This document shows, piece by piece, positions 4,011 to 60,306 of a stretch of DNA of 64,000 nucleotides; position 1 is the first letter of the stretch, and each line of letters begins with the position of its first letter. The position numbers and the translations under genes are program-made. The notes under the pieces are model-generated. The model searched no databases. It was given only the letters and a program-made list of their open reading frames with translations, and had not been told where the DNA came from. Source of the stretch: Ostreococcus lucimarinus (lineage: Eukaryota); the NCBI GenBank assembly GCA_000092065.1, contig CP000588.1; one strand, written 5' to 3'.

Positions 4011-4252
4011 CTGCCAGTACGATAAAACGATAAAAATGGTCAGTGTCTTCGTTCGGGTTGTTTTGATGAAAAATTTCCGCGTCGACGTTGTTCCCCACAG
4101 ACGCGAGTCAGAGTGGTGCATGAATTGTTTCAACAAGGTAATTCAGATCAGGTCTGTGATTGGTGTATCATAATCATCAACCCCACGAACTGCGAGAGAA
4201 TCATTGGCGATTGATCGGTACGAGCGTTCGTCGCGCGCTTCGAAATACTTAC
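4011..4252 (-). other. NOP56: Spliceosomal intron of NOP56 (242 nt, GTAAGT...CAG)
   Basis: ORFs 4148..5122 and 3477..4136 are in different frames. Homology jumps from ...YLNNKMSV to VAPNLGA. Donor ATGAGTGTG|GTAAGT on minus strand at 4253/4252. Confidence 0.7.
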
Positions 4253-5122
4253 CACACTCATCTTGTTGTTCAAGTAGTTGTGAAGACTGGTTCGGTACTC
4301 GGCGAGGGAAATGACGCGCTTGGCGAAGGACTCAATGTTGATCATGTCCACCGGTGAGATGTCTTGACCCATCGACGCTTTGGCTGCCTCGATCACTTCT
4401 TTAGCCTTGTCCTCGTCCCCGGTGATTTCCTTCAACGCCGGCATCGCCTCATCGGTGAGCGTCGCCTTGTCCTTGATCACGAGCGCCAGTCTCGCGTACA
4501 TGTAGTTGTCGTTGACGACTTTGACGAGCTCGGGAAAGTGCCAACCGTACCATTCGCGCACGCGCATGATGAAGGTGTTGATGTCCTTATCGAGCGTGTC
4601 GATCAGCGCGATGGCCTGGATGATCATGTTATCCGATCGGTTCACGTTGAACTTGACCTTGGCGCGAGAGTACGAGTGCGCCAAGCCGAGTTGCGCCTTT
4701 TCGTAGTCGCCACCCTTGAAACCCTTGACAAACTTTGTGAAATACGCGCGAATGCCCCGAATAATCTCACCGACGTGATCGTTGCACACGCACGGAATCT
4801 TCGTCGTCTCCACGATCGAGTTCCCGAGCTTGGAGTCCGCGACGCCGAGCTGAAACTTGGCCTTTTTAGAATCCTTCAACTTTGGCAAGTTTTGCTCTAA
4901 AAAGTTTTGCAAATCCTCCGAGGCCACGCCCTCGGACACGCAATTAATCTGCTCCAGCGCGTTCGCCGCCGACGTAAACGGTTTAAACCCGTGCAATTTC
5001 ACAACCTTCCCGAACTTATCCGCGCTCTGCGTCGTCTCCTGCACCTTCTCCAGCGCCTGTCCCACGACGTCCAAATCCAGCGTCTCGAACAACCCGTACC
5101 CCGACGAGGACTCGAACAGCAC
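4253..5122 (-). CDS. NOP56: Nucleolar protein NOP56, exon 1 of 2
   Basis: Reads MLFESSSGYGLFE...LGLAHSYSRAKVKFNVNRSDNMIIQAIALIDTLDKDINTFIMRVREWYGWHFPELVKVVNDN..., matching the NOP56 (not NOP58) core. Confidence 0.8.
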
Positions 5123-5487
5123 GAACTGCGCCTGTTCGCGTCACCGATCGCGCGTCGCGCGTCTCCGTCAGTCTCCGCGCGTCTCCGATCGTCCCGCGCG
5201 CGTCGCGCGCGCTCGCATCGCGCGCTCCCGTCGCGTCTTCGTTCCGCGGAGGTTTACGCCGCGATCGTCCTCGCGCGCGTTTCACCGCCGTCTCGCGCGT
5301 CGCCGTCTCGCGCGCCGTCTCGCGCGCCGCGTCTCCCACCGCCGCGTCGCGCATCGCGTCTCGCGTCTCGCGTCGCGTCGCGTCGCACCATGATCGCCGT
5401 TCCGCGCCGTCGTCGCGCGCCGCGCAATGCGGCGGAATCGGCCCGGCGGCGCGCCGCGACGCGCGTCGCACTGTTTGCGCACACACG

Positions 5488-8148: not shown

Positions 8149-8286
8149 CCCTAGCATTTTAGTCCATCGGAAACGTCGTAGCCACGTCGCCGCCTTCGCC
8201 TTCGCGCGTCGTCGCTCGTCGCCACTTCGCGCCTCGCGTCGAAGCCCGCGACGTCGTCCGCGCTCGACCGAGCGATTTCGCGCCCC

Positions 8287-8886: not shown

Positions 8887-8978
8887 CCGCGTTGCATTGC
8901 CCTATCGTCGCTCGCGCTCGTCGCCCGACGTCGCGAATCGTCGCCTCGCGCGTTCGCCGACCGCGCGTTCGCCCTCGA

Positions 8979-9404
8979 TCAATCGCGCGCCCTCTCCAAA
9001 TAATGCTCCACGAACGTCGCCAGCGCGTCGTACGTCGCCGCGCGGCTCGTCCCGTACTCGCGTCCCAGCTCGTCGCCGTCGCCCGGGACGTAATACTTGA
9101 TCGTCGGAAACCGCGTCGCGCGCTGCCACGCGCACACCTCCCGCGCCTCGCCGCAGTCGATCTCCAGGACGTCCACCGTTCGCTTTCGCACCGCGAACTC
9201 GTCGCGCAGCGCTTCCCAGTGCGGCTTCAGCGCCGCGCAGTGCGGACACCGCGCCATCGTGAACGCGACGACGACGGCGTCGCGCGTCTCCTGCTGCAGC
9301 ACGCGCTCGGCGAACGCGTCCACCGCGGTGACGTCGCCCGCCGCGACCGCGCGCGCGACGCACAGCGCGACGCACAGCGCGACGACGCCGACGCGTCGCG
9401 CCAT
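8979..9404 (-). CDS. Thioredoxin-fold / PDI-like secreted protein (signal peptide, CPHC active site)
   Basis: Reads MARRVGVVALCVALCVARAVAAG (signal peptide) ... VVAFTMARCPHCAALKPHWEAL ... FPTIKYYVPGDG. ATG at 9402-9404. Confidence 0.6.
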   Translation of the reverse strand: MARRVGVVALCVALCVARAVAAGDVTAVDAFAERVLQQETRDAVVVAFTMARCPHCAALKPHWEALRDEFAVRKRTVDVLEIDCGEAREVCAWQRATRFPTIKYYVPGDGDELGREYGTSRAATYDALATFVEHYLERARD

Positions 9405-9521: not shown

Positions 9522-11321
9522 ATGGACGACGCCGGCGCGCTTCGGCGCCGCGCTTCGGCGCTCGGCGCGACGCTCGGCGCGGACGACGACGCGCGCGCGT
9601 TCGGCGAACGCGTCGCGCGCGGCGACGTCGCCGGGACGCTGCGCGACGCCGAAGCGCGACCTGAACTCTTGCGCGCTTGCGTCGACGACGAGGGACGGCG
9701 CGCGACGCACGCGGCGGCGGCGCGCGGACGCGCGGGGGCGCTCGAGGCGCTGCTCGCGAGCGGCGCGGCGGCGGACGCGCGAGACGGCCGAGGACGGACG
9801 GCGCTGCACGAAGCGGCGAAGAGAGGCGACGGGGCGTGCGCGCGGGCGATACTGGACGCGCGGCGGAATTACGGGGCGCGGCATCCGAGCGCGCTGGGGG
9901 CGAGGGTGGACGCGAACGCGCGGGACGCGGCGGGATCGACGCCGCTGCTGGAGGCGACGTCGAGGGAGATGATCGCGACGCTGCTGCGAGAGGGCGCGGA
10001 TGGATCGATGCGACGGGGCGATGGATCGAACGCGGTGCACCTGGCGTGCGATCGCGCGGATGGGTGGGCGGTGGAGGCGTTGTTGGGGTGCGGCGTCGAT
10101 TGCGACGCGAGAGACGGGTCGAAGCGGACGGCGCTGCACCGAGCGAGGGACGCGCGATCCGTGGTCGCGCTGTGCGCGTCGGGCGCGGACGTCGAGTGCG
10201 TGGACGCGCGGGGACACACGCCGCTTCACGCGGCGGCGATCGAGGGTAAGCCGGAGGTCGTCGTGCCTCTCGCGAACGCGGGCGCGCGGTTGCGCGCGAG
10301 GACGCGAGGCGGGTTCTTGCCGGGCGCCACCGCGGCGGACTTGGCGGCCAAGTACGGGCACGACGACGTCGCGCGATTGCTGGCCGACGCGAGACAGGTG
10401 TCGCGCGTCGCGTATTTATCGATGTGTGCCGTCAATCACGAGGAAGAGCGAATTAAAAAGCAAATGAGGCGCTCGAGCGAGAAGCGCGCGGCGCTCCTGT
10501 GGGGCGCGCTCGTCGCGGTCGGCGTCGTGTTGTTCGCGCTCGTCGTCGGTCACTTTTGGTTCGCGGGGGCGAAGAGAGAGTTGCGCGAGTGGCGAGAAAT
10601 CCGACAGTCCAGAGAAAAGGCGAAGATTCTAAAGGCGAAACAGCAGGAAGCGGCGGCGAAGGCGGAGCTGAAACGCAAAATGAAGGCGGAGGCGGCGGCC
10701 GAGGCGTGGCGAGAGAACGCTCGCCAAAACGTTGAACGCGTGTTGAGATGCGGCGTGCACGGGACCTTGAAAGATGGCGTCAAGAAGGGCGGTGTTCACC
10801 GCTGCATTCTTTTCGGTCAAGATGGTAAAGGCCTGTCCAAAGAAGCTAACGCCGCGTGCGGCGTATGTGCAGATTTCCTCGCGGCGTTGCGCGAACGCCT
10901 CGACGCGTCGAACAAAGGAAAGACTGAAGCCGAAGTGGACGCTCACCTGACGGCGGCGTGTAAGAAGGCCGAAGGTCGTACTTCCAAGGTGTGTGATTCT
11001 CTTTTGGCCGCGCGAAAAGATTTGAACAGGCAAATGTCGTTCGGGGCGCCGCCGGCGAAAATTTGCGCGCGCCTCGGATCAAAAGATCCCGAATTATGCG
11101 CGGTGAAACCCGCGAGGGAAGGTGACCTCTCGAGCGATGGTAAAGGCGATGCGGCGGCGAGAGATGCGTTCAGAAAGTTGTCCGTGTTCGTGCATCCAGA
11201 CAAGCACGATAATTCCCCTCAAGCGACGGAAGCGTTCAAGATGCTCAACACGGCGAGGGCGTACTTCGATTCGCGCGCCAAGTTGAATGCCAAACGAGCG
11301 GCGTCTCAAGCGAAAACCTAG
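9522..11321 (+). CDS. Ankyrin-repeat protein with single TM helix, coiled coil and C-terminal J-domain (HPD motif)
   Basis: Reads RTALHEAAKRGD, GSTPLLEA, GSNAVHLAC, GHTPLHAAAIEG (ANK repeats). TM ALLWGALVAVGVVLFALVVGHFWF. K/E/A coiled coil. C-terminus FRKLSVFVHPDKH...AFKMLNTARAYF is J-domain-like. ATG 9522 (MDDAGAL) is in frame. Upstream of that the 8301.. ORF is Arg-rich and overlaps the thioredoxin-like gene. Confidence 0.6.
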   Translation: MDDAGALRRRASALGATLGADDDARAFGERVARGDVAGTLRDAEARPELLRACVDDEGRRATHAAAARGRAGALEALLASGAAADARDGRGRTALHEAAKRGDGACARAILDARRNYGARHPSALGARVDANARDAAGSTPLLEATSREMIATLLREGADGSMRRGDGSNAVHLACDRADGWAVEALLGCGVDCDARDGSKRTALHRARDARSVVALCASGADVECVDARGHTPLHAAAIEGKPEVVVPLANAGARLRARTRGGFLPGATAADLAAKYGHDDVARLLADARQVSRVAYLSMCAVNHEEERIKKQMRRSSEKRAALLWGALVAVGVVLFALVVGHFWFAGAKRELREWREIRQSREKAKILKAKQQEAAAKAELKRKMKAEAAAEAWRENARQNVERVLRCGVHGTLKDGVKKGGVHRCILFGQDGKGLSKEANAACGVCADFLAALRERLDASNKGKTEAEVDAHLTAACKKAEGRTSKVCDSLLAARKDLNRQMSFGAPPAKICARLGSKDPELCAVKPAREGDLSSDGKGDAAARDAFRKLSVFVHPDKHDNSPQATEAFKMLNTARAYFDSRAKLNAKRAASQAKT

Positions 11322-15789: not shown

Positions 15790-15898
15790 GTGCGTCGCGC
15801 GAGGGCGAGATCGAGCGCGCGGAGGGGAAGGGGAGAGGCGCGCGCGAGCGGGCGGGACTGACGAGACGACGACGCGCGCGGCGACGACTCGAACGAAG
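15790..15898 (+). other. Putative intron of carboxypeptidase gene (109 nt, GTGCGT...AAG)
   Basis: Joins frame 1 (..KLRVLL) to frame 2 (NYGEHGRELV...). Both are phase 0. This restores the HGRE zinc-binding motif upstream of NRNW. Confidence 0.4.
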
Positions 15899-17847: not shown

Positions 17848-17954
17848 CTGCGAACGATGAAGAAAGCGTTTTGAGTCAGTCGGTTTGAATTCGAGAGCGT
17901 TTGCGCGCGCGAGGTGGAAATTCCTTCTCCAATCGCAAGAATCGAGCGCATCTC
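17848..17954 (-). other. RNR2: RNR2 intron 3 (107 nt, GTACGT...CAG, phase 1)
   Basis: IAIENIHS|G-GTACGT donor. The split codon G/AA gives Glu as in R2 (IHSEMYS). Confidence 0.75.
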
Positions 17955-18173
17955 TCGACGTACCGGAGTGAATGTTCTCGATGGCGATTTGGAAGCCATA
18001 GAACGCGCGGGCTTCCGGAATCTGAACCTCGCCCATGAAACGAACGCCGAGGTTTTCGAGCACGATGCCGTCCGAGGCGGCGAAGAACGCAAGCACGTGC
18101 GAGACAAAGTGCTTCTCATCCTTCGTGAGCGTCTCCCAGTGCTTCATGTCGTCCGACAGATCGACTTCCTCCG
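17955..18173 (-). CDS. RNR2: RNR2, exon 3 of 4
   Basis: Reads (A)[69 protein letters not shown]. Confidence 0.8.
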
Positions 18174-18322
18174 CTGTTTGCGCACAAAAGCACGCGCGAT
18201 CGCGTCGATGTACCGTTAGTCACGCGTCCCGTTCGCCCTTCGCTCTCTCGCGCGCCGCGCGATTTCAAACTTTGCGCAGCGTTCGACGTGACGTCACCCC
18301 ACGCGCTCGTTCGCGCACGCAC
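18174..18322 (-). other. RNR2: RNR2 intron 2 (149 nt, GTGCGT...ACAG, phase 1)
   Basis: Reads FWT-G|GTGCGT ... gcttttgtgcgcaaacag|CG GAG. The split codon GCG (Ala) restores the plant R2 sequence FWTAEEVDL. Confidence 0.7.
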
Positions 18323-18396
18323 CGGTCCAGAAAGACGCCTCAGCCTTCTTATACATCTCCCACACCTGCGGGTACTGAATCGGGAACATCGTGAAC
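18323..18396 (-). CDS. RNR2: RNR2, exon 2 of 4
   Basis: Reads (R)[24 protein letters not shown], essentially identical to plant R2 ([25 protein letters not shown]). Confidence 0.75.
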
Positions 18397-18748
18397 CTGC
18401 GAGCGACCGCGAAACGCGCGCGAAACCTCCGTCAGTGTCTTTTTCAACTAAACGACTCGAAAATCATCCACGACGTCATCTTCCCCAACCTCCCACACCA
18501 CCCGCGCCTCGCGCGCGCCGTCGCCCGCGCCGACGCGCGCGTCGAAATCCCTCACGCAGTCTTCGCCCCCCGAACCGCGCCATCGCGCGTCGCGCGCGCG
18601 TCCAGCCCCGCGAAACGATTCCCGGCACCGGCGCGATTTCAAATTCGAACGTTGCGCCCCATCGTTCGCGCGTCCCTCACCGCGCGCGCGCGCGTCCATC
18701 GACGCCGTCGCGCGCGCGCACGCGTCGCGAATATTTTTCTTCACGCAC
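18397..18748 (-). other. RNR2: RNR2 intron 1 (352 nt, GTGCGT...CGCAG, phase 2)
   Basis: Exon 1 ...GAC CAA CG|GTGCGTGAAG. Acceptor gctcgcag|G TTC ACG ATG. The split codon CG/G gives Arg. Confidence 0.6.
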
Positions 18749-18798
18749 CGTTGGTCGTTTTCATCGAGCAAAGGCTCGGCGAGCGGGAGAGGCGACAT
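18749..18798 (-). CDS. RNR2: RNR2, exon 1 of 4 (MSPLPLAEPLLDENDQ + 2 nt)
   Basis: ATG 18796-18798 reads MSPLPLAEPLLDENDQ(R), aligning to Arabidopsis TSO2 N-terminus (..EEPLLTPTPDR|FCMFPI). Total spliced length is 332 aa. Confidence 0.6.
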
Positions 18799-19065
18799 GT
18801 TTTGCGTCGGCGGGCGTGGAGTAATGACGCGCGTGCCGGCCTGACGCGCGTGCCGGCCTCGTGGTCGCGCTCTCGGCGGACGCGCGGAAAATCACCCGCG
18901 CGTCCGCCGAGACGCATTTAAGATACTTTGAGCGCCATCATCGCTACTTATGAGTCACGAACGGTGCTTTCGAGACTCGGTCAAAAATCACACGCGTGCG
19001 GCGCTTCAAACGTTTTTCGGCCTCGACGCGCCAACGCCGCGCGCGTCACACATCGTCTCGAAGCC

Positions 19066-19104
19066 ATGGGAAAGGTCCACGGTTCGCTCGCTCGCGCTGG
19101 TAAA
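19066..19104 (+). CDS. RPS30: 40S ribosomal protein eS30, exon 1 (MGKVHGSLARAGK)
   Basis: Reads ATG GGA AAG GTC CAC GGT TCG CTC GCT CGC GCT GGT AAA|GTACGT. Confidence 0.8.
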
Positions 19105-19455
19105 GTACGTACACGATATTCTTCTCGATCGATGCGGCGCGCGCGGCGCGCGTTCGGCGCGGCGCGGCGCGCGCGGCGTGGGATCGTCGCGTTAGGGCTT
19201 CGCACGGCGGCGATCGACGACGCGCGCGGCGATCGACGCGCGGCGTCGCTTCGAACGCGCGAACGCGGGGAGTCGCGATGAGATGGCGCGATGGATGGGG
19301 TCGGACATCGCGCGCGGGCGGGAACGGGGCGCGAGATGCGTCGGCGTGGGGGCGCGGGGCGACGGGGCGATCCATGGATGATGGCGGGCGAGGGACTAGG
19401 GCTGAGACGCGCGCGAACGCGAGACTGACGAAGCGATTTCTTACGCGTTGATCAG
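19105..19455 (+). other. RPS30: RPS30 intron (351 nt, GTACGT...GATCAG)
   Basis: Unspliced reading continues as junk (..VRTRYSSRS). Splicing joins ..AGK to [15 protein letters not shown]. Confidence 0.8.
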
Positions 19456-19605
19456 GTTCGTGGTCAAACCCCGAAGGTCGCGAAACAAGAAAAGAAGAAG
19501 CAGCCCAAGGGCCGCGCGTTCCAACGCATCAAGTACAACCGTCGTTTCGTGAACGTCGTCGTGGGCATTGGCAAGAAGCGCTCGCCGAACTCTAACCAAG
19601 CGTAA
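19456..19605 (+). CDS. RPS30: 40S ribosomal protein eS30, exon 2
   Basis: Reads [49 protein letters not shown], matching animal eS30/FAU C-terminus ([35 protein letters not shown]). Total 62 aa. Confidence 0.85.
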
Positions 19606-19616
19606 ACGACGAGAAG

Positions 19617-20198
19617 ATGATTAGTGTTTTCGGAAATCGTTTGAAAGGTGCGACGGCGGTGCGGTCGTTCGCTGTTAATAGTTTGGAGAGTATGAGAGGA
19701 TGTTTGATGAGTAGTGAGTTAGGCAGCCAGTGGGCGCCGGCGACGCGCTGGGCGAAGTCGATTGTTTCGACGACATCCGTCGCCGCCGGAGACGCCGCTG
19801 AGGGTCGATCGAGCCGACGTTCGCTGGACTTGAATCAAAAGTCTGGTGAAATCAAACCCGAATTAGTGAAAAAGTATCTGAGTGAGACCAACATGTCGAG
19901 GGGAGACGTGAACAAGCGCGCGCTCGCCGAAGAGCGAGCCGCGTTTGCGCGCGACGAACACGACACGGGGTCGAGCGAAGTACAAATCGCCAACTTGACC
20001 ATGCGCATTAAGCTCATGACGGAACATTTGCGTGAACATGGAAAGGACACGCACAGCCGTCACGGGCTCATGGCCATGCTCGAGCGCCGGAAGAAGCTTT
20101 TAAAGTACCTCCGACGCACCGACGGCGATAGGTACGCGGATGTCATTTTACGACTCGGTTTGAAGGATCGATCTTTCGTAGACGACAAGTACGCTTAA
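19617..20198 (+). CDS. Organellar (bacterial-type) ribosomal protein uS15 with ~90-aa N-terminal presequence
   Basis: C-terminal reads GSSEVQIANLTMRIKLMTEHLREHGKDTHSRHGLMAMLERRKKLLKYLRRTDGDRYADVILRLGL, the rpsO/S15 signature. ATG 19617 lies only 11 nt after the RPS30 stop. The N-terminal 90 aa are AT-richer, so the start could be an internal Met (e.g. MSRGDVNK). Confidence 0.65.
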   Translation: MISVFGNRLKGATAVRSFAVNSLESMRGCLMSSELGSQWAPATRWAKSIVSTTSVAAGDAAEGRSSRRSLDLNQKSGEIKPELVKKYLSETNMSRGDVNKRALAEERAAFARDEHDTGSSEVQIANLTMRIKLMTEHLREHGKDTHSRHGLMAMLERRKKLLKYLRRTDGDRYADVILRLGLKDRSFVDDKYA

Positions 20199-20345
20199 TA
20201 TTTTGTGATACGAGTCTTCAACTGCGTTTACACCGCGTGCCCGTCTCCGCCTCCCGAACGACGCGACGACGTAGTCGCATTTTTTTCGTCCGGGCTCGAG
20301 CGCCAAAAAGCCGTTTGCCGTTCCTCACACGCCACCGCGCGCACC

Positions 20346-21302
20346 ATGCTCGCATCGCGTCTCGCCAACGCCGCGCGACGCGCCACCGCGAGAACCGCGC
20401 GCGCGTCTTCATCCGCGCCCGCGTCCGCACCGCTGCGCCGCGCGCACGCGCTCGCGACGCGTCGTCGGTCGTCCCGCTCGAGCGCTTCGCGAAGCGCGTC
20501 TTCATCGAACGATGCCGACGCCGAAGCGCGCTCGCGCGACGATTGGATCGTCGTCGGGTGCGATTCCGACGCCCACGGCGCGCTGTGCGTGATCTCGGGC
20601 GCGTCCGTGGGCTCGGTGCGAAGCGTGAACGTTCGGGACAATCCCACGAGCACGGTGACGGTGAACGGACGCGCGCGACTGCGACTGGACCCGGACGCCA
20701 TGCGCGGCGCGGTGCGCGCGCTGGGCGTGCCCAAAGGCACGAGGGTGTATTTGGAAGAGGGCGGGGTCGAGTTCGGGTTCAGCGCGCAGACGGCGTTCGT
20801 GCAAGGGTATAATTTCGGGCTGTGGCGAGGCGTGCTCGCGGCGGAGGAATTCGAAGTGCGCGTGGTGAAGCCGCAGGCGTGGAAAGCGGCGATGGGGTTG
20901 AAGTTCAAGGGAAGCACGAAGGATGATTCGATCGCGATGGCGAAGATGCTTTTTCCCGAGATCGCCGGCGAGCTGAAGCGGAAGAAGGATCACGGGAGAG
21001 CCGAGTCGTTGCTCATCGCCGCGTACGGGCACGTCGCAGACGGGGGCGCGGCGGCGAAAGAGGAAGACGAACTGTGTTCTCGCGTACGCGCCGCGCTCGC
21101 CGACCGAGGCGTCGTCGACCGCGAAGAGGGCGCGGCGATGCCGTACTTTGGGCCGTATTTCGGCATGACTGGGGAAGAATTGAGGAAAGAACTCAAAGCG
21201 CGCGGGTGCAAAGTCGGCGGCAACAAAGCCGACTTGATTTTACGTCTCGAGTCGAGCGACGCGGAGATCAACGAGCGCGAATCCAAGAGCGCCGCGGCGT
21301 AG
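20346..21302 (+). CDS. RuvC/YqgF-like RNase-H-fold nuclease (Holliday-junction-resolvase-like) with C-terminal SAP domain and organellar transit peptide
   Basis: Reads MLASRLANAARRATARTARASSS... (transit-like). WIVVGCDSDAHGALCVISGA (RuvC motif I-like). RVYLEEGGVEFG (Glu). ESLLIAAYGH. C-terminus GMTGEELRKELKARGCKVGGNKADLILRLES is a SAP motif. ATG 20346 is in frame with ORF 20205. Confidence 0.5.
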   Translation: MLASRLANAARRATARTARASSSAPASAPLRRAHALATRRRSSRSSASRSASSSNDADAEARSRDDWIVVGCDSDAHGALCVISGASVGSVRSVNVRDNPTSTVTVNGRARLRLDPDAMRGAVRALGVPKGTRVYLEEGGVEFGFSAQTAFVQGYNFGLWRGVLAAEEFEVRVVKPQAWKAAMGLKFKGSTKDDSIAMAKMLFPEIAGELKRKKDHGRAESLLIAAYGHVADGGAAAKEEDELCSRVRAALADRGVVDREEGAAMPYFGPYFGMTGEELRKELKARGCKVGGNKADLILRLESSDAEINERESKSAAA

Positions 21303-22416: not shown

Positions 22417-22488
22417 CTACGCCGTGCGTCGCATCACTTCGTCCTTCGCGCATTCATCCACGCACTTGTACATGTCAAAATATTGCCC
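22417..22488 (-). CDS. QCR6: Ubiquinol-cytochrome c reductase hinge protein (QCR6/UQCRH), last exon
   Basis: Reads GQYFDMYKCVDECAKDEVMRRTA*, matching plant QCR6 (HCTGQYFDYWQCVDKCVAPKLF). Acceptor gcgcgcag|GGG. Confidence 0.75.
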   Translation of the reverse strand, partial: GQYFDMYKCVDECAKDEVMRRTA

Positions 22489-22591
22489 CTGCGCGCGCCA
22501 TCGTCTTTCCGAGTCAGTCTCCGCGCGTCGTCGCCGTCCTCGTTCGCTCGTTCGCGTCTCTCGCGTCTCTCGGTCGCCTCGCCTCGCGCAC
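22489..22591 (-). other. QCR6: QCR6 intron 2 (103 nt, GTGCGC...GCAG)
   Basis: Reads CAC TGC ACG|GTGCGC. The two exons lie in different ORF-track frames. Confidence 0.7.
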
Positions 22592-22742
22592 CGTGCAGTG
22601 CGCCTCCCCCGTCTCGTCTCCCTTGATCCTCTCCGCGCACGCCTCGTACAGCTTGACGAACTTTTCGCACTTCGGCATGCACTTCTCCTCCACCTCGGGC
22701 TTGTGATCGACCGGTTCGTCGTCGTCGTCCTCCACGTCCGTC
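22592..22742 (-). CDS. QCR6: QCR6 middle exon: (M)TDVEDDDDEPVDHKPEVEEKCMPKCEKFVKLYEACAERIKGDETGEAHCT
   Basis: Acidic N-terminus and CxxxC...C pattern of the complex III hinge protein. It aligns with Arabidopsis QCR6 (DEEVVDPKKYLEESCKPKCVKPLLEYQACVKRIQGDDSGHKHCT). The in-frame upstream codon is TGA, and the only in-frame ATG is internal (MPKC). Confidence 0.7.
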
Positions 22743-22890
22743 CTGTCGTCGCGTCGTCGTCGTCGCGATCGTCGTCAGTCGTCGCGATCGACGTCGTCGC
22801 GTCGTTCGGCGCGTCGTTCGCCCGCGCCCGCGCGCGTCGTTCGCCCGCGCGCGTCGTTCGCCCGCGCGGCGCGCCCGCGGTCGCACGCAC
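22743..22890 (-). other. QCR6: Putative QCR6 intron 1 splitting the start codon (AT|GTGCGT ... cgacgacag|G)
   Basis: Minus strand ...GGAGAACGAT|GTGCGTGCGACC at 22891-22892/22890. Acceptor ACAG|G ACG GAC GTG at 22743/22742. This gives M-T-D-V-E-D-D... with phase 2. Confidence 0.45.
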
Positions 22891-23125
22891 ATCGTTCTCC
22901 CGCGCGTCCGCGTCGCCGTGTGCCGACGCGACCGCTCGAGCGATCGTCCAGGGGCGCGCGCGCGATCGTCGCCGCACACCGCGACGCGCGTCGCGCGCCC
23001 GCGACCAGTTCCGCGCGCGTTCGCTCGCGCGCGTTTCGCGTCACCGTTTCGCGCGGTTTCGTCGCTCGAACGCGCTCGACGGCGACGCCGCGCGCGGATT
23101 CGTCGCGCGCGCCGGCGCGCGCGCG

Positions 23126-23191: not shown

Positions 23192-23383
23192 GTGCGGCGA
23201 TCGATGCGAAAAGTTTTCGCGCGTCGCGGACGGCGCGCGGTGGCGGACGCGCGCGGTCGCGAAGGGCGCGCGCGCGCGCGAACGATGGCGCGCGAAGGCG
23301 GTGGGTTGGGTGGAGGACGCGGCGCGCGAGACGCGCGCGAAGCCGGAGACTGACGAACGCGCGATGCGCGCGCTCGGAAACAG
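23192..23383 (+). other. NDUFA13: NDUFA13 intron (192 nt, GTGCGG...AAACAG)
   Basis: The frame-2 exon 2 has an upstream in-frame TGA. Splicing restores ..PIVQ|DGPPPGGY. Confidence 0.7.
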
Positions 23384-42555: not shown

Positions 42556-43395
42556 ATGAGCAGTGCTCGAGAATCGTTGGTGTTCTCCGCGAAGCTATCA
42601 CAGCAATGCGGCAGAGACGAGGATATGCTCGGAAGCATGCGTACGCTCGCGGCGACGTGCGACGAAGAGCTCACTGACGAAGAACGAAATCTTTTTTCGG
42701 TGGCGTTGAAGAACGTGCTTCAATCCCTGAGATCGAGCATCGCCGTCGCGAAAGCGATGGAACTGCGGGAACGACAGCTTGCGAACGACGACGGGGCGGC
42801 GCTCGCGAAGGGTTATGCGCAGAAGCTGTCCGCAGAGCTCTCGCGTTTTTGCTCTTCGACGATTGAGGCGATAGAGCGACGGTTGTCCACGCCGACGGAA
42901 TCTTCCGCGCACGCGCGCGTGTTTTACCTCAAGCTTCTGGGAGATTACTGGCGATACACGTGTGAAGTTGACATCGACGCCGACAAGCGGGACGAAGCCA
43001 TCGCGCATTGTACCGACGCGTACGAAGTCGGCGTGGAACTCGCCGCGACATCTGGGCTCACCATGTGCGATCCGATACGCTTGGGATTGTACCTGAACCA
43101 AACAGTCTTTCTTTACGAGATCGTCGGGAAACACAGTGGCGCAATCGCCATCTCCAACGCCTGCGTATGCGCATTCGAATCCGCTCGAGAAGCCATCGGC
43201 GTCGCCGACGTCGCCGACGTCGGCGAGGCGATGGCCGACGCGGAAGCGATCGTCCAACTCATGCGAAACAACTGCGTACTGTGGCAGCGTGAACTCGAAC
43301 ACGAGCGCGAGCGCGCGTCCGCTGGTGCGCGCGGCGCGACGGACGACGACGAGATCGATCAACTCCTACAAAAATTACATTTAGCGGCGCGTTAG
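42556..43395 (+). CDS. 14-3-3-like protein (divergent)
   Basis: Reads MSSARESLVFSAKLSQQCGRDEDM..ELTDEERNLFSVALKNVLQSLRSS..VFYLKLLGDYWRYTCEV..IVQLMRNNCVLWQ. Collinear with 14-3-3 helices (ELSNEERNLLSVAYKNV, VFYLKMKGDYYRYLAEV, LIMQLLRDNLTLW). Confidence 0.65.
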   Translation: MSSARESLVFSAKLSQQCGRDEDMLGSMRTLAATCDEELTDEERNLFSVALKNVLQSLRSSIAVAKAMELRERQLANDDGAALAKGYAQKLSAELSRFCSSTIEAIERRLSTPTESSAHARVFYLKLLGDYWRYTCEVDIDADKRDEAIAHCTDAYEVGVELAATSGLTMCDPIRLGLYLNQTVFLYEIVGKHSGAIAISNACVCAFESAREAIGVADVADVGEAMADAEAIVQLMRNNCVLWQRELEHERERASAGARGATDDDEIDQLLQKLHLAAR

Positions 43396-51195: not shown

Positions 51196-51636
51196 TCACG
51201 CGTCTTCAAACCGTTCGATCGCGCGTTCTTGCTCCGCCGCGATCGCCAGTTGAATTCTATCAATCTCATCCTCGGCGCGTTCGATTTCCCGCGAAATTTC
51301 GCGCGCCTCGCTGAACCGCTCGAGCAACAGTCGCGCGTTCAGGTCGGATTTGAGCCGTCGCACGCGCGCCTCGGCCTCGAACTTTCGCCCGCGCATCTGC
51401 GTGACGTCGTCGTTGACGTAATCGCCGCCGCGCACGCGATTCCGCGCGAGATTTAACGCGCGCTGCTTGATGCAAAGCGCGCGCTCGTGCAAGTCGCCAG
51501 CGTTGTCACCCGCGTGCGTCGCGCGCGCGGGGACGCGGCGCGCGCGTCGGGACGCGCGCGCGCGCGGCGGGGCGGGCGACGCGCGAGTGCGGTCAAACCG
51601 CAAAGCGTTCTCGTGCGCGCGCGCGACGCGCGCCAT
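51196..51636 (-). CDS. Small UVR-domain-containing protein with transit-peptide-like N-terminus
   Basis: C-terminus ..KFEAEARVRRLKSDLNARLLLERFSEAREISREIERAEDEIDRIQ resembles the UvrB/UvrC-type UVR motif. Confidence 0.35.
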   Translation of the reverse strand: MARVARAHENALRFDRTRASPAPPRARASRRARRVPARATHAGDNAGDLHERALCIKQRALNLARNRVRGGDYVNDDVTQMRGRKFEAEARVRRLKSDLNARLLLERFSEAREISREIERAEDEIDRIQLAIAAEQERAIERFEDA

Positions 51637-53902: not shown

Positions 53903-54111
53903 CTGACAAGTCGAAAAAGTAGGTTAGTCGCGGCTTCATGGTGTCACGCTCGTGGCAAATCGCGTACGAGCGATTTCTCAGAAGGAAAGCAGCAGATTCG
54001 TATGTCTCATCAATGGAATCAGAATCCTGACACAATGAATCTTTCATCATCGAAAATCAAACACGACACGAGCGGCGCTGAAAACTGTTTTGCGAGTCGA
54101 GTCATACGTAC
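53903..54111 (-). other. HEATR1: HEATR1 intron 2 (209 nt, GTACGT...GTCAG)
   Basis: GCG CTC AAG|GTACGT donor at 54112/54111. The two large ORFs are in different frames. Confidence 0.7.
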
Positions 54112-57100: not shown

Positions 57101-57855
57101 AAAGCATCACGCAGGAAAGCCGCATCTTCTTCGCTAGCAACCATCTTCTCCTTCTTCTTCGTCACTTTCTCAGATGTCTTGTCTTTTCCGCTCTTTGCCG
57201 CAGCACCGCGGAAAATAAAATCTACCGCCTCGCTCGTGGCGACAGGTCGGCACTGATCGGCCAGTTTCAACACCGATTTGGCCATATCTGCCGCGGCTGT
57301 ACTTTTCTTTGCAGTTTGCAACAGTACAGGCAACGCCGCGATGAAATGCTTCCCCGTCAGCGGAACCTTTTCAATCACTCCTCGCAAGACGCGTTCATAA
57401 TTCGAGTGCACGTCGGCAAACTCGGCGAGTGAACGCATGAGCGGGATTGAAAACGCATCCGCACGATAGCTGTGTTCCAAATCCGCGACTAATTCTTCCA
57501 ACTCGGGAATTTTCACCAAATGCTTGAACGCGCGCTCGGGCAAAGCCTTGACGCGCTGCGTTTGGCACAGAGCCAGCATCGCCTGCAAAGCCTGCGAGTG
57601 CAAAGGTACTCGCGTACCCTTGGCGATTCCTTCGAGTAGCGCCTCCACGAGCGGCTCACCCATTTTCGTGCGAGCCGCGAGCTGGGTCGCAACCATGAGC
57701 GCGCCCGCAAATTGCTCCGAATTCGCAGTCGACGCCAAGCCGGCTTCGAGATACGGCAAAAGGCGCGTCGTCACCGTTGGATCGACTTCCTTCATCAGGC
57801 CTATCGCCTCCGTGATGAGCACGGCGTAGAACGCCGACGTCGTTCCAACGTTTCC
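54112..57855 (-). CDS. HEATR1: HEATR1/UTP10, exon 2 of 3 (HEAT repeats)
   Basis: 1248 codons of HEAT-like helical repeats. Together with the flanking exons it gives ~2177 aa (human HEATR1 2144 aa). Confidence 0.75.
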
Positions 57856-57911
57856 CTGTGAAATGAAAAATATATTGTTAGTTTCACGAGTACTCGTGCG
57901 CGTGATTAAAC
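57856..57911 (-). other. HEATR1: HEATR1 intron 1 (56 nt, AT-rich, ATC|GTTTAA ... aaCTAACaa ... tttcacag|GGA)
   Basis: Exon 1 frame ends TAA at 57906 unless spliced. The only GT before it is at 57910-57911. CTAAC is a branch-point-like motif. The acceptor is in phase with exon 2. Confidence 0.5.
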
Positions 57912-58592
57912 GATCCAATCGCCGTGGAAAACAAACAAAAAAGTCGTCGCCGGCGCCTCGAAGTCACGCACCTTTGCCGTCGCCATCTCCGTCGCACTCT
58001 GCGCACAAAACGTAAAAAATGCCTTATCCTTCGAACATCGCACCGCCAACGCATCTCTCGGCGGCGCCGCGCCCGTCTCTTTCACCCCACCCAACCACTT
58101 AAAATGCCTACTATTCTCCAACTGACACGTCTGCGTCGCTTTGACGAACGCCGCCGTCCCGTGCCACGGCAATCCACACGCGATGAGCGCGTCCACGTCG
58201 TACACGTGTATCTTAAACCGCCGAATCAAGTATTCAAGCGTCTCACTCGCGCACCGTTCGTTAAAGTACCCGCTCAGCAACCGCAAATATCCCTCCACGC
58301 GCGCGCTCGTCGCCGCGAGTTCCTCCGCCGTCTCCAACTCCCTGTGTTTCCCCTCCGCCACGCTTCGCGCGAACAGCGTCTTCGCGTGTAGTTCGAACCG
58401 CCCGTCCCTTCGGCACAGCTCTTCGAATCCTCGCGCGCCGATCGCGTGCGCGGTCTCGCGATCGACGTCCGCGGCGTCTTTGACGTCGTACAGCAGCGAC
58501 GCCTTCGCGTTCTTTCCGATGCGTCGCTCGTGCGCGCCGGCGCGCTCCTGGAGCCCGCGCAGGGCGTCCGCGAGGGCGGTGGACGGCGCCAT
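57912..58592 (-). CDS. HEATR1: HEATR1/UTP10, exon 1 of 3 (U3 snoRNP10 N-terminal domain)
   Basis: Reads MAPSTALADALRGLQ...ASLLYDVKDAADVDRETAHAIGARGFEEL...LEYLIRRFKIHVYDVDALIACGLPWHGTAAFVK. Collinear with the HEATR1 N-terminus (ASLLFDPKEAATIDRDTAFAIGCTGLEEL..LEWLIHRFHIHLYNQDSLIACVLPYHETRIFVR). ATG 58590-58592. Confidence 0.75.
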
Positions 58593-58836
58593 CGCGCGTC
58601 GGTCGCTCGACGTCCTCGCGGCGCGCGCGACGCGAGCGACGCGCGCGACGTCGAGTGCCGCCGCCGCCGCCGGCGTCGCGCCGACGTCGCGCGCGCGTTA
58701 CATGGCGATCCATCGCGCTCGTGTACGCGAAAATGCTCGTATCGTGGACCCATGTAAGCCGATGTGGTGACGCGACGCCCACGCGACCGCGCGGCACACG
58801 CCGACGCGCGATCGCGGGCTCGACGTCGCGCGCGCG

Positions 58837-58899
58837 ATGGAGGCGTACAGGAACAAGTTCATCGCCACGGGGAAGTTCGCGCCGCTGAAACACTTCATG
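58837..58899 (+). CDS. Small His-rich membrane protein, exon 1 (MEAYRNKFIATGKFAPLKHFM)
   Basis: ATG 58837. Donor CAC TTC ATG|GTGCGC at 58900. Confidence 0.45.
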
Positions 58900-59033
58900 G
58901 TGCGCGCGCGAGAGACGCGCGCGAGGGATCGTTCGCGACGCGAACGTTCGAATGAATGCGCGCGCGGAACGACGACGACGCGACGACGGCGCGCGAGGGC
59001 GCGAGGACTGACGGAAGAACGCGCGCGCGATAG
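58900..59033 (+). other. Intron of His-rich protein gene (134 nt, GTGCGC...GATAG)
   Basis: Exon 2 (ORF 59034..59267) begins with GTG immediately after tag and lacks an upstream ATG. The phase-0 join to the exon-1 ATG ORF gives a continuous 98-aa protein. Confidence 0.45.
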
Positions 59034-59267
59034 GTGGGCGTGTTCGTGCTGGCGTTCGGGTTGGAGACGTATCATCATCACAAGTACCACGGGGAGCATG
59101 ACCACGGCGACGAGGGCCACGGGGACGGCGCGGAGGCGGCGAACGGGGCGGCGGCGAACAGCGCGAGGGAACGGGCGGCGCTGGGAAGCTTGGACGGGGC
59201 GCAGATGGAGGTGGAGGAATTGCGGGAGAAGGTGAAGGCGATGCGGGAGACTATGATGGGGCGGTGA
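59034..59267 (+). CDS. Small His-rich membrane protein, exon 2 (VGVFVLAFGLETYHHHKYHGEHDHGDEGHGDG...coiled-coil tail)
   Basis: Hydrophobic helix followed by H-x-H-x-H-rich acidic stretch and EVEELREKVKAMRETMMGR*. Confidence 0.45.
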   Translation: MGVFVLAFGLETYHHHKYHGEHDHGDEGHGDGAEAANGAAANSARERAALGSLDGAQMEVEELREKVKAMRETMMGR

Positions 59268-59469
59268 GGAGGACTTCGGCGAGGCGAGGCGAGGCGATAC
59301 CCTCGCGTAGTCGGTTTTTGTTTTGGTAATACTCAGTTAAATGTACAAAAGCGCCGCGGCTTATTCGATCGACAATGCGCGTCGGTCGTCGTGTGATGCG
59401 TCTGATGCGCGCGGGCGTCGCTTTCGCGAGCGCTAGCTATCGCGGACGCGGGCAAAAAAACAAGTCTCG

Positions 59470-60195
59470 TCACTTGACGCCGTTGGCGTTGAGACGTACG
59501 GCTTCCAACTCGCCGCGAACGTGCAGGTCCGTGGACGTCGAGTTCACGCGTTTAGCTGAGTTTATCGGAGGTGCACTCACCGGCGTGTCGCTTCCTTCGC
59601 GTTCATCGCGTTTCGTTCCGCGCTGCGCGTCCACGGATCGATTGTTGTGCGCGAACTCGTCGCCGTCGACGACGATGCGTTCGCTCGGCGAAAGCGGTTC
59701 GTCTTCGCTGTCGGAATCGCTCGGTGACTTTGAAGGCTCGGCGTCGTGCTTCCACGTGCCCCCGTCCATGGGATCGTGCACCCAATACTTCTCTCTGAAC
59801 GTGTCACGCCCGGGGTAGATGTCTGGGGTGATGACGTCGTCGCCGCCGCGCAACCAACTCATGCACATCACGAGGCACTGTCGCGCCGTCGGGCGCTTGG
59901 CTGGATTCGTCTGCGTCGCTAATCGACCTAATTCACGAATAAACTCAACCTCGTCGGCGTTCGTTTTCCTCGTTCGTCGTCGCAACTGTTCGACGAGCTG
60001 AAAACACATCACTCCGTACCCGTATATGTCGCTCGAACAGTCGTACGGCGCCCCGCTCTCGACTTCGGGCGCGCGATACTTTGGCGGTCCAATTTTGGGC
60101 GTCAACCGCGGGTTCACGTCCTCTCGCGCGGACGTCGTCCCACCCGGAAGCACGCGCGCGAGTCCAAAATCCGTCAGCTTGGCCGTTTGATAATC
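59470..60195 (-). CDS. Ser/Thr protein kinase, exon 2 (C-lobe and acidic Ser-rich tail)
   Basis: Reads DYQTAKLTDFGLARVLPGGTTSAREDV...PKYRAPEV...SDIYGYGVMCFQL. Acceptor ggtag|GAT TAT at 60196/60195. Confidence 0.7.
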   Translation of the reverse strand, partial: DYQTAKLTDFGLARVLPGGTTSAREDVNPRLTPKIGPPKYRAPEVESGAPYDCSSDIYGYGVMCFQLVEQLRRRTRKTNADEVEFIRELGRLATQTNPAKRPTARQCLVMCMSWLRGGDDVITPDIYPGRDTFREKYWVHDPMDGGTWKHDAEPSKSPSDSDSEDEPLSPSERIVVDGDEFAHNNRSVDAQRGTKRDEREGSDTPVSAPPINSAKRVNSTSTDLHVRGELEAVRLNANGVK

Positions 60196-60306
60196 CTACC
60201 GCCGCGCGAAATCGCCGAAACCGTCAGTCGAGATATTTTCTCTCCCCCTCGCGTCGCCTCGCGTCTCGCGTCGCGTCTCTTCGTCTCGTCCCCATCCCAC
60301 GCGTAC
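60196..60306 (-). other. Kinase intron (111 nt, GTACGC...GGTAG)
   Basis: ATA TCC GAG|GTACGC donor. Without splicing the frame reads VRVGWGRDEETRRE... and loses the DFG motif. Confidence 0.7.

Follow-up and report, generated by a model that had tools for sequence, protein, structure and literature searches.

Spliceosomal introns with GTGCGT-type donors in a 64-kb window of the Ostreococcus lucimarinus genome

Intron content of the window

The window (the whole stretch of O. lucimarinus DNA analysed here, 64,000 nt) holds ~35 genes, in nine of which we reconstructed a total of 14 spliceosomal introns. The host genes encode RPS30, UCR hinge, GRIM-19, RNR2, NOP56, HEATR1, an M14 peptidase, a protein kinase, and a 98-aa membrane protein, and intron lengths range from 103 to 352 nt, with a mean of 185 nt (n = 14). 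Based on the evidence below, these are almost certainly ordinary U2-type (GT-AG) nuclear introns of the "canonical" non-chromosome-2 class of this intron-poor genome. Coding frames were chosen by codon log-odds, with eight large ORFs as the training set; GC3 by itself discriminated poorly. [quoted passage not shown]

4011-4252, minus strand: NOP56 intron 2; 242 nt, 46% GC, donor GTAAGT, branch ACACTGACC at 29 nt, acceptor GGCAG, phase 0
5132-5388, minus strand: NOP56 intron 1; 257 nt, directly after the start codon (ATG/GTGCGA), branch AGACTGACGG at 36 nt, acceptor AACAG
15790-15898, plus strand: M14 carboxypeptidase intron; 109 nt, donor GTGCGT, branch GGACTGACGA at 37 nt, acceptor CGAAG, phase 0
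17848-17963, minus strand: RNR2 intron 3; 116 nt, donor GTACGT, phase 1; contigs L003 and L004 join 17964 to 17847
18174-18322, minus strand: RNR2 intron 2; 149 nt, donor GTGCGT, branch TGACTAACGG, phase 1; L003 and L004 join 18323 to 18173
18397-18748, minus strand: RNR2 intron 1; 352 nt, donor GTGCGT, phase 2; L003, L004, and L007 join 18749 to 18396
19105-19455, plus strand: RPS30 (eS30) intron; 351 nt, donor GTACGT, branch AGACTGACGA at 27 nt, acceptor ATCAG, after codon 13
22489-22591, minus strand: UCR-hinge (QCR6) intron 2; 103 nt, donor GTGCGC, branch AGACTGACTC at 25 nt, acceptor CGCAG
22743-22890, minus strand: UCR-hinge (QCR6) intron 1; 148 nt, donor GTGCGT, splitting the start codon (AT/.../G)
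23192-23383, plus strand: GRIM-19 (NDUFA13) intron; 192 nt, donor GTGCGG, branch AGACTGACGA at 30 nt, acceptor AACAG, after codon 22
53903-54111, minus strand: HEATR1/UTP10 intron 2; 209 nt, 46% GC, donor GTACGT, branch CGACTAACC at 21 nt, acceptor GTCAG
57856-57971, minus strand: HEATR1 intron 1; 116 nt, donor GTGCGT, branch AAACTAACAA at 22 nt, acceptor CACAG
58900-59033, plus strand: intron of the 98-aa membrane protein gene; 134 nt, donor GTGCGC, branch GGACTGACGG at 22 nt, acceptor ATAG, after codon 21
60196-60306, minus strand: protein-kinase intron; 111 nt, donor GTACGC, branch CGACTGACGG at 28 nt, acceptor GTAG

All 14 introns begin with GT and end with AG, the nine spliced models all keep an open frame, and Pfam domains become unbroken and higher scoring after splicing wherever a junction falls within one. 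Seven of the models (NOP56, RPS30, GRIM-19, kinase, M14, 98-aa protein, and RNR2) correspond exactly to GenBank proteins. Six introns (RNR2 introns 1-3, RPS30, kinase, and 98-aa protein) are missing to the base from intron-free contigs that are otherwise 99-100% identical, and three more (GRIM-19 and both UCR-hinge introns) are missing from contigs of related Ostreococcus, while the remaining five (both NOP56 introns, M14, and both HEATR1 introns) are placed by identity to a GenBank protein, Pfam continuity, or conserved exon ends. The structure of the intron-free contigs suggests that they are RNA-derived, a designation that their source does not itself give, and the introns beyond the six covered in this way are probably also spliced as modelled. 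Splicing of each intron from the pre-mRNA would restore the reading frame.

A first-pass annotation of the same DNA had listed 13 introns of 56-352 nt. Twelve of these were correct, while one donor (in HEATR1) was misplaced and one intron (NOP56 intron 1) was overlooked; since the 56-nt HEATR1 intron represents the 3' half of a 116-nt one, the lower end of the size range has to be raised to 103 nt. The ribosomal, respiratory, RNR2, NOP56, and HEATR1 genes that it had named as hosts were all recovered in our reconstruction. Its summary did not include the M14 peptidase, the protein kinase, or the 98-aa membrane protein.

Interrupted reading frames could also result from errors of sequencing or assembly, or from frameshifts in pseudogenes, and the interruption itself is the sole point in favor of such an origin. 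Against it, all interruptions have GT...AG borders and a branch motif at constant spacing, the intron-free contigs drop exactly these intervals, and the NOP56 introns have the same sequences in L022, which was assembled independently from a near-identical strain; this explanation is thus already refuted and retains virtually no probability. Because the second NOP56 locus in L022 is 99.6-100% identical, it is uninformative on conservation.

For the genes with the most direct evidence, models and independent sequences agree throughout. The RNR2 exon is 100% identical to the protein of O. lucimarinus CCE9901, the spliced RNR2 product is the annotated 329-aa O. lucimarinus protein (P0001), and its three introns fall within the codons for Arg17, Ala42, and Glu112 (phases 2, 1, and 1), the same Arg, Ala, and Glu residues that the first-pass annotation had reported as split. 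The 62-aa RPS30 ORF is unbroken in intron-free contigs L005-L008, and the spliced model is identical to XP_001419064.1, with a Pfam Ribosomal_S30 match over positions 1-58 of 58. Likewise, the spliced model of the 98-aa protein equals XP_001419077.1 and is matched by intron-free contig L011, with the intron position kept in related contigs L019 and L020. The 390-aa kinase model equals XP_001419288.1, with a Pkinase match continuous over the junction (124 bits), and in intron-free contigs L011 and L012, 60307 is followed directly by 60195; the precise absence of this intron from one related lineage indicates that it is dispensable. The 143-aa GRIM-19 model equals XP_001419067.1, and its junction is identical in a relative's contig (L013). 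For the 356-aa M14 model (XP_001419063.1), the Pfam match spans the junction when spliced (profile 34-284, vs. 55-284 unspliced). A joined query spanning the M14, HEATR1, NOP56, and GRIM-19 junctions retrieved ORFs of genomic exons and remote M14 homologues, and zero transcript-derived proteins.

With both introns removed, NOP56 yields a 471-aa model exactly identical to XP_001419274.1 and a single continuous Nop domain (profile 1-226, 294.7 bits), as opposed to two fragments in the unspliced ORFs. The O. tauri Nop56 N-terminus likewise reads MAQFVLFE. An alternative acceptor for intron 1 at 5126 was rejected, as the resulting model is missing from the protein collection while the 5132 model is present. 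An exact junction scan of JGI contigs gave 0 matches for NOP56 intron 1, and the same scan gave 0 matches and no same-species RNA for UCR-hinge intron 1.

The UCR-hinge gene has no other in-frame ATG upstream of its conserved domain, and splicing raises the Pfam UCR_hinge score from 32 to 60.2 bits. Genomic contig L016 from a related lineage carries intron 1 as ...GACGAT/GTACGC...ACTGAC...CGCAG/GACG, while related-Ostreococcus contigs L013-L015 read ...GCGATGACCGAC across this junction and share an identical intron 2 junction. The spliced model has no entry in the protein collection, and this gene, whose ATG arises only after splicing, appears to be unannotated in O. lucimarinus. The annotation of its orthologue in O. 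tauri is partial. We found no mention of the start-codon-splitting intron in the portion of Irimia & Roy 2008 available to us (PMC2483917).

For HEATR1 intron 1, both the 116-nt version and the 56-nt version of the first-pass annotation (57856-57911, donor GTTTAA) are in frame, and neither full-length model matched any collection protein exactly, so that the donor had to be settled by comparative alignment. The end of exon 1 (...GGCAAAG/) is kept in L019 and L020, where it is followed by GTAACG or GTACGC and by introns of 354 and 342 nt, and the L019 intron read in frame reaches an in-frame stop. The shorter version was therefore discarded. For intron 2, tblastn alignments to L019 and L020 break at the same ...ALK/ESA... 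junction.

Splice signals and intron class

The splice signals of the 14 introns are unusually uniform, and the donor is GC-rich. Donors are GTGCGT (five), GTACGT (three), GTGCGC (two), and GTACGC, GTGCGG, GTGCGA, and GTAAGT (one each), with G (9) or A (5) at +3, C at +4 in 13/14, G at +5 in all, and T at +6 in 9/14. The consensus GT(G/A)CG(T/C/G) proposed in the first-pass annotation therefore holds: 13 of the 14 introns start with GT[AG]CG, a pentamer present at 6.6% of the GT dinucleotides across the window (binomial P ~7e-15). Its donor list matches ours except that it lacked GTGCGA (NOP56 intron 1) and gave GTTTAA where GTGCGT is correct. An ACT[GA]AC motif is present in every intron (ACTGAC in 11, ACTAAC in three, and the extended form GACTGACG in seven), with the branch A located 21-42 nt from the intron end, and of the 21 ACTGAC sites in the window, 11 are in the 3'-terminal 45 nt of one of the 14 introns. 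Other ACTGAC sites were rejected as being on the antisense strand or within continuous ORFs. Acceptors are YAG in 13/14 introns (CAG in 11, TAG in two) and AAG in one; the earlier description as mostly (C/T)CAG is thus right for the CAG and inaccurate as a 4-mer, the -4 base being a pyrimidine in 2/14. Recognition would then use a 5' site G-T-(G/A)-C-G-(T/C/G/A), a branch motif (G)ACT(G/A)AC(G) 21-42 nt before the 3' end, and, as 3' splice site, the first usable AG, mostly CAG.

A scan for motifs only (donor, branch, and AG) returned 19 candidates vs. 13 +/- 3.7 in simulated sequences, and is not diagnostic without frame or RNA evidence; chance candidates rejected include a 14-3-3 site (42641-42711) and a kinase-1 stop site (2743-2793). 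None of the 14 donors resembles the TATCCTT of the U12-type signal ((G/A)TATCCTT with branch TCCTTAAC). Chromosome-2 or BOC-type introns of Mamiellophyceae are 40-65 nt in size, and this small AT-rich class was not found among the 14 introns, which are longer and carry a strong consensus. The O. tauri orthologues are located on chromosome 8. As described by Irimia & Roy 2008, the chromosome-2 introns of O. lucimarinus are short, use a GTRNGT donor, almost lack a common branch motif, and come from an intron-dense half of that chromosome (PMC2483917).

For non-chromosome-2 introns confirmed by ESTs, the same study (PLoS Genet 4:e1000148; PMC2483917) reports a GTGCGTG donor, a CGCAG acceptor, and a branch-to-AG distance of 20-35 nt; 66.5% of them have GACTGACG and 87% have ACTGAC. 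The introns in the window share the organism, the donor, the (G)ACTGAC(G) branch, and the CGCAG-type acceptor, with slightly different branch-to-AG distances (~20-35 nt in the published text vs. 21-42 nt here) and a near-identical mean length (187-188 nt in the literature vs. 185 nt). They are a 14-intron sample of that class with nothing essential different. Because publications of 2008 had already described, for O. lucimarinus, the GTGCGT-type donor consensus as well as the association with well-expressed genes, the original finding is correct but ordinary, and has little discovery value. The gains of the re-analysis are a base-accurate intron map of the window, with one splice site corrected and one intron added, as well as a record of two snoRNA-host introns, a start codon built by splicing, and lineage differences (one intron absent, one snoRNA truncated).

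Intronic snoRNAs

Two introns contain predicted snoRNA genes:

4099-4184, minus strand: C/D box snoRNA in NOP56 intron 2, orthologue of Ot-CDsno72, with 96.5% identity over the full 86 nt
53974-54055, minus strand: C/D box snoRNA in HEATR1 intron 2, orthologue of Ot-CDsno73, with 96.4% identity

In both, C (RUGAUGA), D (CUGA), and internal C' and D' boxes are visible in sense orientation within the host intron. Rfam C/D family scores are under the gathering score for both, with a SNORD33-like match of 32.9 bits and partial snR56 and DdR1 matches for the NOP56 intron, and a snoU83-like match of 36.2 bits, the top snoRNA-like match of the whole window, for the HEATR1 intron; at gathering thresholds, Rfam returned nothing across the window. 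A block of ~85 nt corresponding to the HEATR1 snoRNA is near-invariant in L019 and L020, the remaining intron sequence being unalignable, i.e., a footprint across three lineages. Ot-CDsno72 and Ot-CDsno73 are expressed in O. tauri at 1757 and 1263 TPM (PMC7671301). The host of Ot-CDsno72 is Nop56 (ostta08g00480), the orthologue of the NOP56 gene in the window, and gene order suggests that ostta08g00800 ("Armadillo-type fold"), which hosts both Ot-CDsno73 and Ot-HAsno74, is HEATR1. On the basis of sequence orthology, NOP56 intron 2 and HEATR1 intron 2 are thus hosts of C/D box snoRNAs, with expression data coming from O. tauri only. The snoRNAs would be released from the excised introns, and such a cargo would be a direct functional reason to retain them.

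Two related lineages carry the H/ACA snoRNA Ot-HAsno74 within HEATR1 intron 1, and only a ~50-nt remnant is found in this strain, which suggests that the snoRNA was mostly lost here while the intron was retained. The snoRNA was recognized only via the published O. tauri sequence (PMC7671301 supplement); Rfam returned nothing on the relative's HEATR1 intron 1.

Introner elements and intron age

Introner elements, known from the sister genus Micromonas (Worden 2009; Verhelst 2013; Simmons 2015), are likewise spliceosomal, and the IE-C class of Micromonas RCC299 has the same GACTGACG branch motif (PMC3879977). Along with the GC-rich simple sequence common to several introns in the window, this would be compatible with recently spread introner families, as in M. 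pusilla CCMP1545. A self-BLAST, which the first-pass annotation had suggested for the genome as a check for such families, was run within the window, intron against intron and intron against window, and no introner-like repeats were found among the 14 introns. Pairs of introns align only over low-complexity stretches of ~40-60 nt, the best match (43 nt at 86%) being GC-rich simple sequence that coding regions match equally well. Micromonas introners in contrast exist as many mutually similar copies. In addition, eight intron positions are common to divergent Ostreococcus lineages (both HEATR1 introns, the 98-aa protein, the kinase (one relative only), both UCR-hinge introns, GRIM-19, and NOP56 intron 2, the last judged from its snoRNA within the O. 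tauri Nop56 gene), and these eight introns must therefore be old. On this search of the window and these common positions, a recent introner origin is highly improbable.

Gene size, expression, and intron position

The first-pass annotation had also associated introns with small genes, which is weakly supported in the window. Four of six genes <150 aa carry introns vs. 5/29 of the others (Fisher p = 0.027); median lengths of the nine intron-bearing and 26 intronless genes are 329 vs. 350 aa (Mann-Whitney p = 0.18). Its statement that the largest genes are intronless applies to POLA1, receptor, GCP, GWD, and ELP2, all single ORFs with complete domains, and fails for HEATR1, which is the largest of all (2157 aa) and has two introns. 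Genome-wide, Lanier et al. 2008 (PLoS One 3:e2171; PMC2367439) reported from 19,200 ESTs a significant but weak correlation between intron number and expression (R ~0.09), which stands with and without ribosomal proteins, and no significant correlation with transcript (cluster) length. The expression claim of the first-pass annotation is hence the same as the published one, in which the effect is one of expression and not of gene size.

Ten of the 14 introns are located in the first 25% of the coding sequence, including one right after the ATG and one splitting it. Similar features are known from intron-poor yeasts (Saccharomyces, Yarrowia), i.e., uniform and strong splice-site and branch signals, a 5' bias, introns in or at the ATG, and an enrichment of introns in ribosomal-protein genes, and introns in the window, like those of the yeasts, are present in ribosomal and respiratory genes. 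In Yarrowia, 42 introns follow the ATG immediately or split it (PMC13309789). The yeast signals are GTATGT and TACTAAC, whereas the introns in the window use GTGCGT and ACTGAC; given the different lineage, the resemblance is convergent.

These patterns raise the question of whether introns are kept only where needed, either to host snoRNAs or to enhance expression from a 5' position, i.e., through selection rather than chance survival. Two introns host conserved snoRNAs that are expressed in O. tauri, the 5' bias includes two introns at the start codon, the genome-wide expression correlation is positive (PMC2367439), and start-codon-proximal introns accompany the highest expression in Yarrowia (PMC13309789). 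5'-proximal introns may thus persist because they benefit expression. Yet the published correlation is weak, HEATR1 intron 1 survives here even though its H/ACA snoRNA, present in relatives, is truncated, and the kinase intron is precisely missing in one related lineage. Reverse-transcriptase-mediated, 3'-biased intron loss is an established model, and would produce the same 5' bias. Overall, we consider selective retention possible, though somewhat short of probable.

Donor preference and the spliceosome

The C at donor position +4 does not pair with U1, and Irimia & Roy 2008 left the cause of the atypical donor open (PMC2483917). The same study raises the possibility that a second spliceosome, or a modified one, with co-evolved snRNAs recognizes the GTGCGT and GACTGACG signals. 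The consensus does depart from the usual GTRAGT at +4, and the chromosome-2 introns of the same genome have weaker and more typical signals (PMC2483917). Three of the four AT-richer introns in the window (NOP56 intron 2, HEATR1 intron 2, and RNR2 intron 3) also have A at +3, NOP56 intron 2 even having a fully canonical GTAAGT. However, in the sister species O. tauri the published snRNAs keep canonical sequences at the positions that matter here (U1 5'-AUACUUACCUG, U2 GUAGUA, U6 ACAGAGA, and U5 loop CUUUUAC; PMC7671301 supplement), and CUGAC can probably pair with a canonical U2 via one G-U wobble. The snRNA genes of O. lucimarinus itself are located outside the window. Judged from the O. tauri snRNAs, a dedicated machinery seems very unlikely, and we retain the assignment to ordinary U2-type introns.

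Since U1, U2, U5, and U6 of O. tauri are canonical at their binding sites, the donor preference is not explained by these O. tauri snRNAs. If the GUGCGU preference indeed evolved without a compensating change in these snRNAs, as the O. tauri genes would suggest, another factor, or composition-driven drift combined with purifying selection, might enforce the consensus across Mamiellophyceae, a tentative proposal that we regard as rather doubtful. If true, it would offer a concrete way into the question of why rigid splice signals evolve convergently in intron-poor genomes. Micromonas likewise displays AG/GTGCGT and NCTGAC signals (PMC3879977). Among the AT-richer introns of the window, the fourth, HEATR1 intron 1, departs from the +3 A pattern.

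A compact set of U2-type introns

Across the window, we identified a total of 14 introns, spread over 9 of ~35 genes. Frame breaks were found with a codon log-odds table and Pfam, junctions were read in a three-frame map, and spliced models were then built.

Introns of the window, numbered from the gene 5' end (coordinates, strand, intron, length, donor; a slash marks the splice junction)
4011-4252, minus, NOP56 intron 2, 242 nt, GTAAGT
5132-5388, minus, NOP56 intron 1, 257 nt, ATG/GTGCGA
15790-15898, plus, M14 peptidase intron, 109 nt, GTGCGT
17848-17963, minus, RNR2 intron 3, 116 nt, GTACGT
18174-18322, minus, RNR2 intron 2, 149 nt, GTGCGT
18397-18748, minus, RNR2 intron 1, 352 nt, GTGCGT
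19105-19455, plus, RPS30 intron, 351 nt, GTACGT
22489-22591, minus, UCR-hinge intron 2, 103 nt, GTGCGC
22743-22890, minus, UCR-hinge intron 1, 148 nt, GTGCGT
23192-23383, plus, GRIM-19 intron, 192 nt, GTGCGG
53903-54111, minus, HEATR1 intron 2, 209 nt, GTACGT
57856-57971, minus, HEATR1 intron 1, 116 nt, GTGCGT
58900-59033, plus, 98-aa membrane protein intron, 134 nt, GTGCGC
60196-60306, minus, protein kinase intron, 111 nt, GTACGC

These introns average 185 nt (n = 14); 10/14 are in phase 0, 13/14 end in YAG, and all carry a branch motif (ACTGAC in 11, ACTAAC in 3) whose branch A lies 21-42 nt before the 3' end. In this set, delimited by reading frame, homology and transcript evidence, GT[AG]CG starts 13 of the 14, compared to 6.6% of all GT sites in the window (P ~7e-15), and their 3' ends hold 11 of the window's 21 ACTGAC sites. 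Over the whole window ACTGAC is not over-represented (21 observed vs 18.8 expected), and the motif combination alone is not a reliable intron finder there (19 observed vs 13 +/- 3.7). Most introns are GC-rich (64-77% G+C) and largely simple sequence, with NOP56 intron 2, HEATR1 introns 1 and 2, and RNR2 intron 3 being AT-richer (46-52% G+C). One further ACTGAC site with an AG downstream, at the window's left edge (282-287, minus strand) and outside the intron set studied, could be part of an intron in a gene running off the window.

The introns are U2-type, and their main features have all been published for this genome. Irimia & Roy 2008 (PMC2483917) describe an "atypical consensus GTGCGTG", ACTGAC at 87% and GACTGACG at 66.5%, a preference for CGCAG acceptors, and a branch-to-AG distance of ~20-35 nt, while canonical introns of Micromonas likewise combine AG/GTGCGT with NCTGAC (PMC3879977). 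Given this published consensus and the likeness to Micromonas, the intron set is a correct rediscovery. The 2008 study suggested that altered snRNAs might fit the odd consensus. In the sister species O. tauri, snRNA contact sequences are canonical (U1 AUACUUACCUG, U2 GUAGUA, U6 ACAGAGA, U5 CUUUUAC; PMC7671301 supplement), so this suggestion is not borne out in that species; the O. lucimarinus snRNAs lie outside the window. By standard pairing rules, GUGCGU would pair with U1 at +1, +2, +5 and +6, with a wobble at +3 and a mismatch at +4, and CUGAC would pair with U2 via one G-U wobble.

The first-pass annotation had listed 13 introns. That observation is real but needs two corrections: its donor tally is the same as ours except that NOP56 intron 1 was omitted and the HEATR1 intron 1 donor misplaced. 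The latter intron had been drawn as 56 nt with a GTTTAA donor, and both the 56-nt and 116-nt versions keep the reading frame. Comparison with two related Ostreococcus lineages (L019 and L020) decides for 116 nt and GTGCGT: exon 1 ends in both at the same ...ATGGCGACGGCAAAG/ as in the window, followed by GTAACG or GTACGC, and homology to the window ends exactly at its GTGCGT. The intron is 354 or 342 nt long in these lineages, and reading in frame through that of L019 reaches an in-frame stop. The earlier assignment of split Arg17, Ala42 and Glu112 codons to the RNR2 introns was correct (phases 2, 1 and 1).

The accompanying interpretation was right on consensus, weak on gene size and wrong on introners. 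Introner elements, for which the first-pass annotation had proposed a check, lack support here: within the window the introns share only GC-rich simple sequence, common also to coding DNA, and eight intron positions are common to other lineages. As for the proposed enrichment in small, highly expressed genes, the <150-aa class is indeed enriched (introns in 4/6 such genes vs 5/29 larger ones, Fisher p = 0.027), but the overall size difference is weak (median 329 aa for intron-bearing vs 350 aa for intronless genes in the window, Mann-Whitney p = 0.18). HEATR1, the largest gene in the window at 2157 aa, holds two introns, and the M14 peptidase and kinase genes are also interrupted. Genome-wide, intron number shows a significant but weak positive correlation with EST abundance and no relation to transcript length, and the average intron is 188 bp (Lanier et al. 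2008, PMC2367439).

Evidence of splicing

Public assemblies include near-identical contigs (99-100% exon identity) in which the proteins are uninterrupted and the alignment to the window omits exactly the intron intervals. Between them, L003, L004 and L007 account for RNR2 introns 1-3, L005-L008 for the RPS30 intron, and L011 and L012 for the kinase and 98-aa protein introns; the L011 contig also places the 98-aa protein start upstream of the ATG adjoining the donor. L011 and L012 go back to sequencing runs SRR28369099 and SRR28369231. The 3' 2.8 kb of GWD is collinear with an intron-free contig, and GWD is thus without an intron in that stretch. L005-L008, L011 and L012 extend over adjacent genes including intergenic DNA (window 18323-20429 and 58737-63753), joining RNR2, RPS30 and organellar S15 in one case and GWD, the kinase and the 98-aa protein in the other, which suggests overlapping or read-through transcription units. 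Since some contigs span neighbouring genes plus intergenic DNA in this way, we infer that the intron-free contigs were assembled from RNA, out of transcripts that overlap.

Contigs of a related Ostreococcus (L013-L015) show the splice junction of GRIM-19 and the two of UCR-hinge. For the NOP56, M14 and HEATR1 introns, the support consists of annotation identity, continuous and higher-scoring Pfam domains, and exon ends conserved in relatives. Two exact-junction scans of JGI contigs, for UCR-hinge intron 1 and NOP56 intron 1, returned 0 matches. The kinase intron is also found in L020 (3302-3418, 117 nt) and is precisely absent from L019 (3228/3229), a sequence pattern that indicates recent loss or gain within Ostreococcus.

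An intron within a start codon

In the UCR-hinge (QCR6) gene (22418-22892, minus strand), the start codon is split AT/G by the 148-nt intron 1, and before splicing no in-frame ATG precedes the UCR-hinge domain in the ORF. The window reads ...GAACGAT/GTGCGT...CGACTGACGA...GACAG/GACGGACGTGGAG; after splicing, ATG-ACG-GAC... encodes MTDVEDDDDEP..., and the cDNA expected from this model would be ...GAACGAT-GACGGACGTG. A genomic contig of a relative (L016) has a matching layout, ...GACGAT/GTACGC...ACTGAC...CGCAG/GACGGAC, and contigs from a similar strain read ...GCGATGACCGACGTC, with the 5' UTR collinear with L016 upstream of the donor and the following block beginning exactly at the G. The O. tauri orthologue in GenBank is labelled "partial" and lacks a Met, and the 74-aa model is absent from the protein collection; annotations probably lack the gene or model it wrongly. 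Introns in or straight after the ATG are known elsewhere, with 42 in Yarrowia (PMC13309789). Within intron 1, a GGGCGAACGACGCGCGC-like unit is repeated in tandem about three times at 22790-22880 (minus strand).

Intronic snoRNAs

When the whole window was searched against Rfam at relaxed stringency, the two top snoRNA-like matches each fell within an intron, in the orientation of the host gene. Both resemble expressed O. tauri snoRNAs.

Box C/D snoRNAs (coordinates, strand, host intron, identity)
4099-4184, minus, NOP56 intron 2, 96.5% to Ot-CDsno72
53974-54055, minus, HEATR1 intron 2, 96% to Ot-CDsno73 (L019 9854-9938; L020 9811-9895)

The host of Ot-CDsno72 in O. tauri is also Nop56. Two putative guide segments of the NOP56 snoRNA look complementary to what we take to be snR56-type and SNORD33-type 18S sites. 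The HEATR1 intron 2 snoRNA, an orthologue of Ot-CDsno73, is nearly invariant in three Ostreococcus lineages, and the remaining intron sequence is unalignable. Ot-CDsno73 lies in an O. tauri "Armadillo-type fold" gene, which gene order suggests is HEATR1. In L019 (~9860-9935), the C box of the Ot-CDsno73 orthologue has changed from UGAUGA to UGACGA and the D box from CUGA to CCGA, which could represent a paired U-U to C-C kink-turn change or snoRNA decay.

HEATR1 intron 1 of the relatives, at 342-354 nt, contains the H/ACA snoRNA Ot-HAsno74 (L019 5776-5965; L020 5725-5912), tabulated in O. tauri in intron 1 of the gene that we regard as HEATR1, with 18S U1264 as predicted target (PMC7671301). 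The 116-nt intron of the window retains only approximately the first 50 nt of this snoRNA, and no second copy was found elsewhere in the 64 kb.

Genomic setting

The window has ~63% G+C and very high gene density. Pfam scans of long ORFs revealed a eukaryotic green-algal gene set including DNA polymerase alpha, gamma-tubulin complex protein (GCP), glucan-water dikinase, CCB2/4, NOP56 and RNR2. Seven spliced models are identical to GenBank proteins of O. lucimarinus CCE9901, and the last RNR2 exon has 100% identity to a predicted protein of that strain. The NOP56 orthologue and, judging by gene order, that of HEATR1 are on O. tauri chromosome 8, so the window does not come from the atypical chromosome 2. 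A 146-aa ORF without a Pfam match (51199-51636, minus strand) occupies the ~700-nt gap between the HEATR1 and GCP ends; the corresponding spacing is only ~60-95 nt in L019 and L020, so this ORF or insert is lineage-specific.
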